A DNA stretch of 64,000 bases from Bacteroidales bacterium. GTDB lineage: Bacteria > Bacteroidota > Bacteroidia > Bacteroidales > Paludibacteraceae. Below the pieces are notes generated by a model. It had not been told where the DNA came from, did no database searches, and worked only from the letters and a program-made list of their open reading frames with translations. The stretch lies in NCBI GenBank assembly GCA_015654525.1, contig JAATGT010000033.1:4082-68081 (forward strand), given 5' to 3'. Positions 1,940-4,273 of this stretch are shown in pieces; position 1 is the first letter of the stretch; the number at the start of each line of letters is the position of its first letter. Made by a program: the position numbers and the translations under genes.

Positions 1940-2063
1940 TACAAGTTTTTCAGTGTCTGAAATTATCCCGATATTCGGCATAATACTATCTGTTCTCAGT
2001 TTTATATTTTCTGTTTAAAACTTATTTTGTTTTATACATTATAATCTCTCTAACCTTTATGTC

Positions 2064-3077
2064 ATGTTGTTATCAGACAAAAATCAATTTTTACGCGAAA
2101 GCTTTCGGTTAAATGCCATGCTTTTGTTGAGATGCAACGGTAATTCTGCATTTATGAAACTTTCGGTGAATGAACTGTATCGGATTGCCGGTTGCATTAC
2201 CGGTGTCAGAGTAGATCAATGCGGCGAGAGTAAAGAAATTGTACAACCATCGTGGAAAGTGGATGATATGAAAACTTCTGGCTTTTATTTACTTGAAATG
2301 AAACGAATAGCTGTATTCCTACGGGGTATTTATAAAGCTGTTAATGCCAAATTAAGTGAAGTTACTTCACGCCCGGTGAGGATACTGTATGCAGGTTCGG
2401 GTCCTTATGGCGAACTGCTCACCCCCTTGCTGCATTTGTACAAAGCCAATGAGGTTTTGGTCGATTTTATCGAGATAAATCCGGTTCTATTGTTGAGTTT
2501 ACAGAAACTAATCGATGGATTAGAACTTAGGCAATACGTGGATGAGTTTTATTGTGCCGATGTTACTACCTTTACGGTTAGCAAGTCCTACGATATTGTC
2601 ATTTCCGAAACAATGCTGGCTTGTATAAAAAGAGAATCGCAGGTGGCTATGATGCAAAATCTGATTCCTCAACTGAGTAAAGACTGCATTTTCATTCCCG
2701 AAGAAATATCGATCAATGCGAGCCTTATCACTCCCTGGATACAGATGGAAAGTTTGTCATATTATCAAAATGAACAAGCTTTATTGGAACGATATCCGCT
2801 TGGAAATGTATTCAAACTTAGTAAATTAACCATGCAGAACTTGTCGGAGCCTAAAGTAGTGAAAATCCCCGATGAAATTGCCAGATTCCCGCTATTGAAA
2901 CTTTTTACTACGGTGAAGGTTTACAGAGATGAAGTGTTGATCGACAATGATTCAGGTATTACATTGCCTAAGCAGTATTATGATTTCAGAGAGAAAGCTG
3001 CCCGTGAGGTAGAATTTTGGTATACCGGGGGCGAAAATCCCCAAATCGAAAGCCGGATTGTAGAAAATAACAGATAA
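2064..3077 (+). CDS. Class I SAM-dependent methyltransferase, PRMT-like
   Basis: Motif I ILYAGSGPYG, acidic FIEIN, CADVT, DIVISETMLACIKRE, IFIPEEI. Confidence 0.75.
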   Translation: MLLSDKNQFLRESFRLNAMLLLRCNGNSAFMKLSVNELYRIAGCITGVRVDQCGESKEIVQPSWKVDDMKTSGFYLLEMKRIAVFLRGIYKAVNAKLSEVTSRPVRILYAGSGPYGELLTPLLHLYKANEVLVDFIEINPVLLLSLQKLIDGLELRQYVDEFYCADVTTFTVSKSYDIVISETMLACIKRESQVAMMQNLIPQLSKDCIFIPEEISINASLITPWIQMESLSYYQNEQALLERYPLGNVFKLSKLTMQNLSEPKVVKIPDEIARFPLLKLFTTVKVYRDEVLIDNDSGITLPKQYYDFREKAAREVEFWYTGGENPQIESRIVENNR

Positions 3078-3232: not shown

Positions 3233-4273
3233 GTGAAAAAAACAATGATCCTATCCATCGATGGCGGTGGAATCAGAGGCATTCTTCCCGGTGTCATACT
3301 TGCTTATCTGGAAGAAGAACTTCAGAAAAAAACCAGGAATCCGGAAGTGCGGCTTTCCGATTATTTTGATTTGATAGCCGGAACCAGTACCGGTGGAATA
3401 CTTACCTGCATGTACATAACTCCCGATGAAAACGGGCGACCAAAATTCAGGGCTCAGGATGTGGTTGGCCTGTACCTGAAAAACGGACAAGAAATATTTT
3501 CCATTCCTTTTGCCCGTCGGCTTATCAATTGGTTTGGATTGTTCGAGGCGCGCTATCCGGTTCGGAATATTGAGAAGATTCTACGTGCTTATATGAAGGA
3601 TATCCGGCTCAGTCAGGCATTAAAACCTTGTTTGATTACTTCCTACGAAATTTTTCAGCGAAAAACGATCTTTTTCAATAAGCTCGATACTGCCAAAAGC
3701 GAAACCCGCGACTTTCTGTTGCGCGATATTGCCCGCTCCACCTCGGCAGCGCCTACTTATTTTAAACCGGCTCAGATTCATTCCACCTACGGTAATCCAC
3801 TTTATCTGGTAGATGGCGGCATGTTTGCTAATAACCCGTCGATGTGTGCGTATGCTGAAGCACGAACCATAAAATTCAGTGCCTTGCCCGAGTGCGCAGG
3901 CAAAGTCGATTATCCCACAGCTACCGAAATGGTACTTGTTTCCATCGGCACCGGTTCGCATGGAGATCCTTATTCTTACCGGAAAGCCAAACGGTGGGGT
4001 GTGGTAGGATGGCTTCGCCCGCTAATCGACATTCTGATGTCCGGCAACTCCGAAACGGTACATTATGAACTCAGTCAGATGTTTGGAGCCGTTGATCCTG
4101 CCAATCTGGCTAACTACTTCCGGCTGGAACCTACGGTGGGTACAGCCAGTAGCGCTATGGATCTGGCTACGCCCGAAAACATGTGTGCGCTGGAAGAAGC
4201 CGCCAAAACCTTTGTAAGCAATAATGTGAATCAGCTCAACAGAATAGTAGATTTACTAATTGAGAATAAATGA
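3233..4273 (+). CDS. Patatin-like phospholipase
   Basis: DGGGIRG oxyanion loop, GTSTG nucleophile, SAAPTYF, DGG catalytic Asp. Confidence 0.92.
   Translation: MKKTMILSIDGGGIRGILPGVILAYLEEELQKKTRNPEVRLSDYFDLIAGTSTGGILTCMYITPDENGRPKFRAQDVVGLYLKNGQEIFSIPFARRLINWFGLFEARYPVRNIEKILRAYMKDIRLSQALKPCLITSYEIFQRKTIFFNKLDTAKSETRDFLLRDIARSTSAAPTYFKPAQIHSTYGNPLYLVDGGMFANNPSMCAYAEARTIKFSALPECAGKVDYPTATEMVLVSIGTGSHGDPYSYRKAKRWGVVGWLRPLIDILMSGNSETVHYELSQMFGAVDPANLANYFRLEPTVGTASSAMDLATPENMCALEEAAKTFVSNNVNQLNRIVDLLIENK

Follow-up and report, generated by a model that had tools for sequence, protein, structure and literature searches.

The closest described relatives of the protein analyzed here are the eukaryotic protein arginine methyltransferases (PRMTs). 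Its gene is located on a stretch of 64,000 nucleotides (the window) from a Bacteroidales bacterium of the Paludibacteraceae (GenBank assembly GCA_015654525.1, contig JAATGT010000033.1, positions 4,082 to 68,081), where the open reading frame (ORF) at positions 2064 to 3077 of the plus strand is open throughout and encodes 337 amino acids. Among the PRMTs, the closest structure is the N-terminal module of Caenorhabditis elegans PRMT7 (3wst/3x0d); PRMT5, PRMT9 and PRMT1/Hmt1 are also similar. Like these enzymes, the window protein is predicted to combine a Rossmann domain binding S-adenosylmethionine (SAM) with a beta-barrel, and it contains an Arg helix in front of motif I, motif I itself, a double-E loop immediately behind strand 4 and a (L/I)(F/I)P turn. 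What separates it from the PRMTs is an additional N-terminal extension of two helices, a sequence identity of 10 to 16%, the lack of the THW sequence (S/G-x-T-x-P being found in the family), the bacterial host and a sporadic distribution.

Bacterial PRMT-like methylases are already known from computational work. Aravind et al. 2011 is the source cited for bacterial PRMT-like peptide methylases by a review of 2012. In its accessible part, this review (PMC3417536) derives the PRMTs from a radiation of bacterial "peptide methylases", places their bacterial sister groups in operons resembling those of secondary metabolism, together with peptide dioxygenases, with non-ribosomal peptide synthetases (NRPS) and with LSD1-like oxidases, and describes PRMT domains inside giant peptide synthetases. 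As far as it is portrayed there, this group resembles the present family, which is also bacterial, PRMT-like and linked or fused to peptide-type 2-oxoglutarate (2OG) dioxygenases, and which likewise resides in accessory clusters of sporadic occurrence. By contrast, the partners NRPS and LSD1-like amine oxidases named in that part of the review were not among the recurrent neighbours of the family, and the same pages make no mention of a context of tail-collar proteins, PBP6-like proteins, formyltransferases and giant type IX secretion system (T9SS) proteins. A reading of the window made from the sequence alone (the sequence-only reading) had called the activity poorly described in bacteria. 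This holds true for experiments but not for comparative genomics, by which, according to the accessible part of the review (PMC3417536), bacterial PRMT-like methylases had been described by 2011-2012.

Two further bacterial enzymes act on related groups. SznE, an arginine methyltransferase of the streptozotocin cluster, makes omega-N-methylarginine, as stated in the accessible part of PMC12637814. It can be likened to the present family by description only and, unlike SznE, the window methyltransferase is not surrounded by a biosynthetic cluster. For the guanidino methyltransferase BlsL, the available part of the literature reports only low similarity to PRMT and GAMT. The best structural match outside the PRMTs was PrmA (3grz), the methyltransferase of ribosomal protein L11, with Z 12.6 over 144 aligned residues for the window protein and Z 10.5 over 160 aligned residues for a canonical member of the family (the methyltransferase of locus L020). 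PrmA, a bacterial enzyme that methylates a protein, is also built on a Rossmann core, but only this domain could be aligned while the C-terminal half was left uncovered. PrmA is not known to possess a double-E loop. Literature searches did not reveal an experimental study of the family, and searches on bacterial PRMTs, tail-collar proteins and MdpB yielded nothing on it; of the papers found, only PMC3417536 was relevant.

Fold and catalytic motifs of the methyltransferase

The AlphaFold2 (AF2) model of the window protein reached a mean predicted local distance difference test (pLDDT) score of 83.1 and a predicted template modelling score of 0.85. All 50 matches listed by Foldseek were PRMTs, with a best E-value of 1.9e-13 and TM-scores of 0.47 to 0.55. 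Alignment with C. elegans PRMT7 by VIA-align gave Z 17.9 and a root mean square deviation of 4.3 over 257 residues; 49 of the 50 alignments listed did not begin before model residue 43, and one began at residue 27. A search independent of Foldseek, performed against 48,161 representative chains, returned PRMTs at ranks 1 to 15 (Z 12.8-17.7, 238-265 aligned residues), PrmA at rank 16 and generic Rossmann methyltransferases thereafter. In this search, the PRMT alignments spanned model residues from approximately 50 to 337, whereas other methyltransferases aligned over 134 to 166 residues. The model of the canonical member was of higher confidence (pLDDT 94.4) and set the PRMTs apart more sharply: they were matched with Z 13.2 to 19.8, again over both domains, and the next fold with 10.5. 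Since only PRMTs matched over both domains, the protein was assigned to the PRMT fold, and its model shows the two-domain arrangement of a Rossmann SAM domain and a beta-barrel. The Rossmann strand-helix pattern is present around motif I. A short insert of low confidence at about residues 224 to 244 occupies what we take to be the position of the dimerisation arm in type I PRMTs. The sequence-only reading had proposed a PRMT architecture and had named, as the outcome speaking against it, best matches to small-molecule or RNA methyltransferases together with poor conservation of two Glu residues; the PRMTs proved to be the best matches and the two Glu are conserved.

This relationship was not visible from the query sequence. 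Pfam searches with the single protein gave sub-threshold matches to Methyltransf_25 and Methyltransf_31 only and no PRMT model at E≤10, NCBIfam searches gave nothing relevant, and phmmer searches against the Protein Data Bank (PDB) yielded chance matches to OppA only (E 0.58). No model for the family exists in Pfam or NCBIfam. A profile built from the 33 closest members did not match PDB sequences significantly (PRMT7, E 0.28). For a broader profile, 129 family representatives with 24 to 62% identity were aligned (alignment A2, on which all counts out of 129 are based). With this profile, significant matches were obtained to C. elegans PRMT7 (E 7.7e-5) and rat PRMT1 (E 1e-3); PRMTs accounted for 32 of the 35 PDB chains listed. 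Strand 4 and the following loop of the family fell column for column on PRMT1 VDIIISEWMGYCLFYESML, with both Glu aligned, and the same two residues were also aligned with the two Glu of C. elegans PRMT7. Likewise, the I-P turn of the family was aligned with LIFP and the R81 helix with the equivalent helix of PRMT7, Arg on Arg. In PRMTs, the conserved Arg of the helix preceding motif I contacts the cofactor.

The double-E loop of the window protein lies within YDIVISETMLACIKRES (residues 176-192, nucleotides 2589-2639), E182 being encoded by nucleotides 2607-2609 and E191 by 2634-2636. The sequence-only reading had pointed to the spacing of nine residues between these Glu and to its agreement with the PRMT1 loop. 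The protein contains 27 Glu, however, and three E-x8-E pairs (182/191, 262/271 and 315/324), while shuffled versions of it possessed 2.0 such pairs on average and at least one pair in 89% of 10,000 shuffles. The spacing by itself is no more than chance and, therefore, the weight of the 182/191 pair rests on homologues and structure. E182 was found in 129/129 and E191 in 128/129 representatives, both residues were present in all 13 sequences of alignment A3 including fused forms, and in the model the pair directly follows the strand formed by residues 178-181. The agreement with PRMT1 was confirmed by the family profile, and the other elements that had been picked out from the sequence, namely the Arg helix EMKRIAVF, motif I YAGSGP, the IFIP turn and the beta-rich C-terminal domain, were recovered as well (Table 1). 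In addition, D166 is conserved in 127/129 representatives. Between barrel strands, a conserved loop NDSGITLP (residues 295-302; T300 in 108/129, P302 in 121/129) may correspond to the THW loop of PRMTs. Judged from sequence and model, the protein is most likely a guanidinium-directed bacterial SAM-dependent methyltransferase with PRMT fold.

Table 1. Location of the methyltransferase gene, its elements and the repeat at its start within the window
Feature	Position	Strand	Basis
ORF of the predicted PRMT-fold SAM-dependent methyltransferase (P0001), 337 aa	2064..3077	+	ORF; AF2 model; PRMTs are the sole two-domain matches
Direct-repeat copy B, 126 nt, over the gene start	2049..2174	+	Copy A outside the window, 4466 nt upstream
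Extension of two helices at the N-terminus, residues 1-50 (helices 3-22 and 28-46)	2064..2213	+	AF2 model; outside most PRMT alignments
Lid segment, residues 53-74, consensus replaced (G64W, A66V, A72S; C75Y just behind)	2220..2285	+	Alignment; predicted disordered (pLDDT <50)
Helix with invariant R81 (LEMKRIAVFLRG)	2295..2330	+	R81 in 129/129; aligns with the C. elegans PRMT7 helix before motif I (3wst, E 7.7e-5)
SAM-binding motif I, ILYAGSGPY	2382..2408	+	Y109 in 129/129; G111, G113 and P114 each in 128/129
Strand 4 and double-E loop (YDIVISETMLACIKRESQ; E182, E191)	2589..2642	+	Family profile; conservation
IFIP turn, invariant P212	2688..2699	+	P212 in 129/129; aligned with PRMT1 LIFP
C-terminal beta-barrel domain, residues 214-337	2703..3074	+	Strands of the model; PRMT alignments extend to residues 333-337

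The family is large. A collection clustered at 90% identity contained 150 relatives of near full length at E≤1e-3, and clustering at 50% identity resulted in 1328 clusters at E≤1e-3, of which 1039 reached E≤1e-10. Of the 150 relatives, most are nameless; the names given to the others are "hypothetical protein", "predicted RNA methylase" and "phospholipid N-methyltransferase", apart from a single UniRef entry termed "Phytanoyl-CoA dioxygenase". More distant relatives carry a fused PhyH, AspH, GNAT or DUF1801 domain. A relative of 719 amino acids (P0135) contains two PRMT-like modules in tandem, each with an E-x8-E loop, a layout as in eukaryotic PRMT7 and PRMT9. Cultured strains of Pedobacter and Mucilaginibacter carry members of the family.

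Gene neighbourhoods of the family

To describe the genomic context, one genome per species was scanned. The scan revealed 248 relatives, of which 79 loci, nearly all from Bacteroidota, were kept; ORFs lying no more than 7 kb from the match were clustered and the clusters named by Pfam. The most frequent neighbours were tail-collar proteins (PF07484, Collar), which often occur as one to three tandem copies directly beside the methyltransferase (37/79 loci), and giant proteins that combine cadherin, fn3 or HYR repeats with a T9SS sorting domain (35/79). Peripla_BP_6-like (PBP6-like) proteins were found at 27, formyltransferase-like proteins at 15, oxygenases of the Asp/Asn-hydroxylase type (AspH) at 12 and of the PhyH type at 10, and F5/8-type-C and cadherin-like proteins at eight of the loci. 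At least one of these seven main components was present at 54 loci. Further neighbours were a carbamoyltransferase, another 2OG oxygenase, an adenosine 5'-phosphosulfate (APS) kinase with a sulfotransferase, an Asn-synthase-like protein and GNAT.

No signal peptide was detected in the N-termini of the Collar and PBP6-like proteins. The Collar proteins share a P-D-L-R-G-R motif, in which R58 is conserved in 38/54 and R60 in 47/54 sequences, and end with a C-terminal Arg in 50/54; these Arg residues are candidate acceptor sites only. The family is sporadic, since only three of 121 genomes sampled across the order were positive. In the other two positive genomes of this sample, a Collar gene lies directly downstream of the methyltransferase gene, while three negative genomes examined for it contained no Collar gene.

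A recurrent Bacteroidota accessory cluster can be recognized at loci L012, L018, L034, L043, L049, L058, L068 and others. Besides the PRMT-fold methyltransferase, it comprises one to three cytoplasmic Collar proteins, encoded in tandem and carrying the P-D-L-R-G-R motif, a leaderless PBP6-like protein, a protein resembling formyltransferases and a giant repeat protein secreted by the T9SS; no description of a Collar/PBP6/formyltransferase/T9SS accessory cluster was found in the literature searches. Five Pedobacter loci (L056, L057, L065, L067, L071) carry a larger version, in which the methyltransferase is additionally surrounded by a peptidase of the clostripain type (PF03415), a GH108 lysozyme that also has a peptidoglycan-binding domain, PhyH and AspH oxygenases, a carbamoyltransferase resembling NodU and one more 2OG oxygenase.

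The window copy and its surroundings

Two features of the window copy went beyond the sequence-only reading: the usual accessory cluster of the family is lacking in this genome, and the lid is unusually diverged. No tail-collar gene lies beside the methyltransferase gene. Its place is taken by a patatin-like gene (3233-4273), which is followed by a gene for a major facilitator superfamily transporter on the opposite strand, and a search for PF07484 did not yield any match in the genome of the bacterium, which is 89% complete. A maximum-likelihood tree was calculated from 78 sequences, the window copy and 77 loci; L033, whose ORF is too short, and L077, for which no ORF was called, were left out. 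In this tree, the window copy joined locus L001 with a support of 100/100. L001 is 94% identical to the window copy and shares its patatin neighbour. Sister to this pair is L035, where a Collar gene lies downstream (support 99/87), and the pair is nested in a clade rich in cluster-linked members. Because of this position among Collar- and cluster-linked loci, loss of the cluster context in the window copy is derived. In a quick tree, the stem of the pair measured about 0.55 changes per column.

Of 26 alignment columns conserved to at least 90%, the window copy deviates at seven, the second highest number among the 129 representatives (median 1). The deviations are G64W, A66V, A72S, C75Y, T82I, A167V and L188I, the first five of which lie ahead of the R81 helix or at its start. 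At the position of C75, PRMT1 and PRMT5 presumably have the Met or Phe that steers the product type. The pLDDT of the lid was below 50 in the model of the window protein, compared to block means of 86 to 95 in the canonical member. The alignment depths of the two models were similar (33 and 35 sequences), but a difference in confidence between models is no more than suggestive. A frameshift was considered as cause of the diverged lid (residues 62-75) and rejected: the other two frames give stops by eye, and the divergence is therefore due to real substitution. The diverged lid is common to the window copy and L001.

The 5' end of the gene revealed a rearrangement. The contig of the window including its upstream sequence (L080; G000:C87) contains a gene for an AraC-type regulator, the same regulator that directly precedes the methyltransferase gene in L001 and six other loci. 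In L080, it is followed by a truncated gene start, the 126-nucleotide copy A (L080 positions 1664-1789), which comprises the first approximately 37 codons. Copy A shares 96% identity with the gene start of L001 but only 83% with copy B, with which it forms a direct repeat. The 4.3 kb between the two copies encode four ORFs of 322, 147, 365 and 444 amino acids, in which neither a Pfam family nor a recognisable integrase was detected. Compared to L001, the frequency of synonymous changes (pS) amounted to 0.31 in codons 1 to 47 and to 0.0375 in codons 48 to 337, from which it can be inferred that the present 5' end of the gene probably arrived with inserted DNA. The 4.3-kb segment thus looks like an insertion bringing its own replacement 5' end. 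A peat metagenome run, in which the gene is accompanied by unlike upstream sequence from position 2049/2063, fits this replacement. Within the segment, the ORFs at 2-601 and 605-1939 of the window (plus strand) are tandem paralogues without a Pfam family, and the 444-amino-acid ORF has an N-terminus like a signal peptide; its nearest ESM Atlas clusters are named "SirB1 N-terminal domain" and "transglutaminase-like" (score 0.98). Promoter and terminator scans gave sites no more frequent than in shuffled sequences.

The patatin-like phospholipase downstream of the methyltransferase gene (plus strand) has kept its GGGxRG, GxSxG and DGG motifs. It resembles the effector CapV of the cyclic oligonucleotide-based antiphage signalling system (CBASS), with an E-value of 2e-60 for PADLOC PDLC00758 and 162 bits for NCBIfam CBASS_lipase, the cut-off of which is 200. 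Copies with approximately 93% identity occur in wetland RNA libraries and in a peat DNA run with unlike flanks on both sides, and the patatin gene therefore moves between contexts. A methyltransferase-patatin operon or defence pair was considered and rejected, as the two genes are adjacent in the window and L001 only, the flanks of the patatin gene vary and no cyclase gene adjoins it. A PADLOC "mad2" match of the methyltransferase (E 3.2e-4, residues 103-213) was also dismissed since it covers the generic Rossmann core only.

Proposed function and alternative explanations

The window protein is probably a PRMT-fold guanidinium methyltransferase of a large, uncharacterised and mostly Bacteroidota family, the window copy being a derived orphan. 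By analogy with the PRMTs, E182 and E191 would hold a guanidinium group, belonging either to an arginine in a peptide or protein chain or to an arginine-derived compound, and a methyl group would pass from SAM to one of the guanidinium nitrogens. The fold, the motifs and the homologous position of the loop were observed, while we infer chemistry and substrate from this analogy, by which arginine or guanidino methylation, the activity suggested by the sequence-only reading, would be assigned to the window protein as well. In most relatives, the enzyme may carry out one of the tailoring reactions of an accessory gene cluster with sporadic occurrence, its partners being cytoplasmic tail-collar (MdpB-like), PBP6-like and formyltransferase-like proteins, 2OG oxygenases, some of them fused to relatives of the enzyme, and a giant T9SS surface protein. 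The window copy no longer has these partners and is flanked by the inserted segment and the unrelated CapV-like patatin gene. Because its conserved lid motif has been replaced and it has evolved fast, it may act on another substrate or be less active. As substrate of the family, protein or peptide arginine is slightly favoured, since the constant neighbours are proteins and since peptide-type oxygenases are fused to relatives.

Several observations weigh against this assignment. The Pfam model of PRMT5 (PF05185) matched 10 of 33 members, all of them below the threshold (best E 0.0021), and the query was not matched. The identity to PRMTs in the VIA-align superpositions is as low as stated above, there is no T-H-W in the sequence, and the THW loop of the PRMTs is not conserved in the family. 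None of the seven main cluster components occurred at 25 of the 79 loci, and neighbours such as carbamoyltransferase, sulfotransferase, APS kinase and Asn synthase fit small-molecule tailoring equally well as protein modification. Three wetland metatranscriptome runs contained contigs over 3234-4242 only, stemming from the patatin gene of a relative; no RNA contig was found on the methyltransferase in these runs, which is no evidence on expression either way. Finally, comparison of codons 48 to 337 with L001 revealed seven synonymous and eight non-synonymous changes (pN/pS 0.31), and these 15 changes are too few to show purifying selection on the window copy.

With regard to the substrate, it is conceivable that the enzyme methylates free arginine, an arginine-derived or otherwise cationic metabolite or a building block of a glycoconjugate instead of a protein. 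The tailoring enzymes in the clusters of relatives (carbamoyltransferase, sulfotransferase with APS kinase, Asn-synthase-like and formyltransferase-like proteins, GNAT and 2OG oxygenases) are in line with this idea, a free-arginine methyltransferase, SznE, is known in bacteria from the accessible part of PMC12637814, and PRMT-like domains occur in bacterial secondary-metabolite operons as far as PMC3417536 presents them. However, neither NRPS, polyketide synthases nor amidinotransferases were among the recurrent neighbours at the 79 loci, and the most constant neighbours, the tail-collar and giant T9SS proteins, are proteins themselves. A small molecule is the less likely substrate but has to be taken seriously. 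Still less probable is a substrate without a guanidinium group, for instance a lysine or N-terminal amine, or O-methylation of the kind performed by methyltransferase domains within peptide synthetases. The substrate does not follow from a common fold, the THW loop lacks sequence conservation, and PRMT-like domains are present in giant peptide synthetases such as anabaenopeptilide synthetase (PMC3417536, accessible part). On the other hand, a Glu pair that is near-invariant in 129 representatives and complete in all sequences of alignment A3 would be unexpected if no cationic group was bound, and this possibility is very unlikely.

A different question is whether the window gene is a decaying or inactive remnant that was left after loss of the collar/T9SS cluster and rearrangement of the locus. 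The number of changed near-invariant positions, five of them in the lid region, the lid predicted to be disordered unlike that of the canonical member, the long stem branch, the genome devoid of a Collar gene and the replaced 5' end with a truncated duplicate upstream may all be read in this way. By contrast, the frame is open in both the window genome and L001, which are 96% identical in DNA, and the peat metagenome run contained a near-identical gene copy with 13 differences in 861 nucleotides. Moreover, all SAM-motif and double-E residues are kept in the window copy and the pN/pS ratio given above is not about 1, even though the counts are small. Decay is unlikely, and the reading as a derived orphan of a guanidinium methyltransferase family is preferred.

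It is tempting to go one step further and to suppose that the family writes arginine methylation onto bacterial proteins as part of a dedicated system. The targets would be the Collar or the giant T9SS protein before assembly or export, additional modifications would be contributed by 2OG hydroxylases and the formyltransferase-like enzyme, and the window copy would represent a freed paralogue with a changed lid and a new substrate. The P-D-L-R-G-R motif of the Collar proteins recalls the RG-rich substrates of PRMTs, but this more detailed scenario has a low probability.

In eukaryotes, the methylation of arginine serves as a major regulatory mark, but its bacterial writers are almost unknown experimentally. 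The family described here comprises more than 1000 sequence clusters, possesses the PRMT catalytic architecture and lacks a curated model. As an atypical orphan, the window copy is of lesser weight and is useful mainly as a natural lid variant. The most interesting lead is what this copy has lost, the link of the family to tail-collar and T9SS proteins: the linkage to tail-collar and giant secreted surface proteins provides concrete candidate substrates, and Pedobacter loci carry the full cluster.

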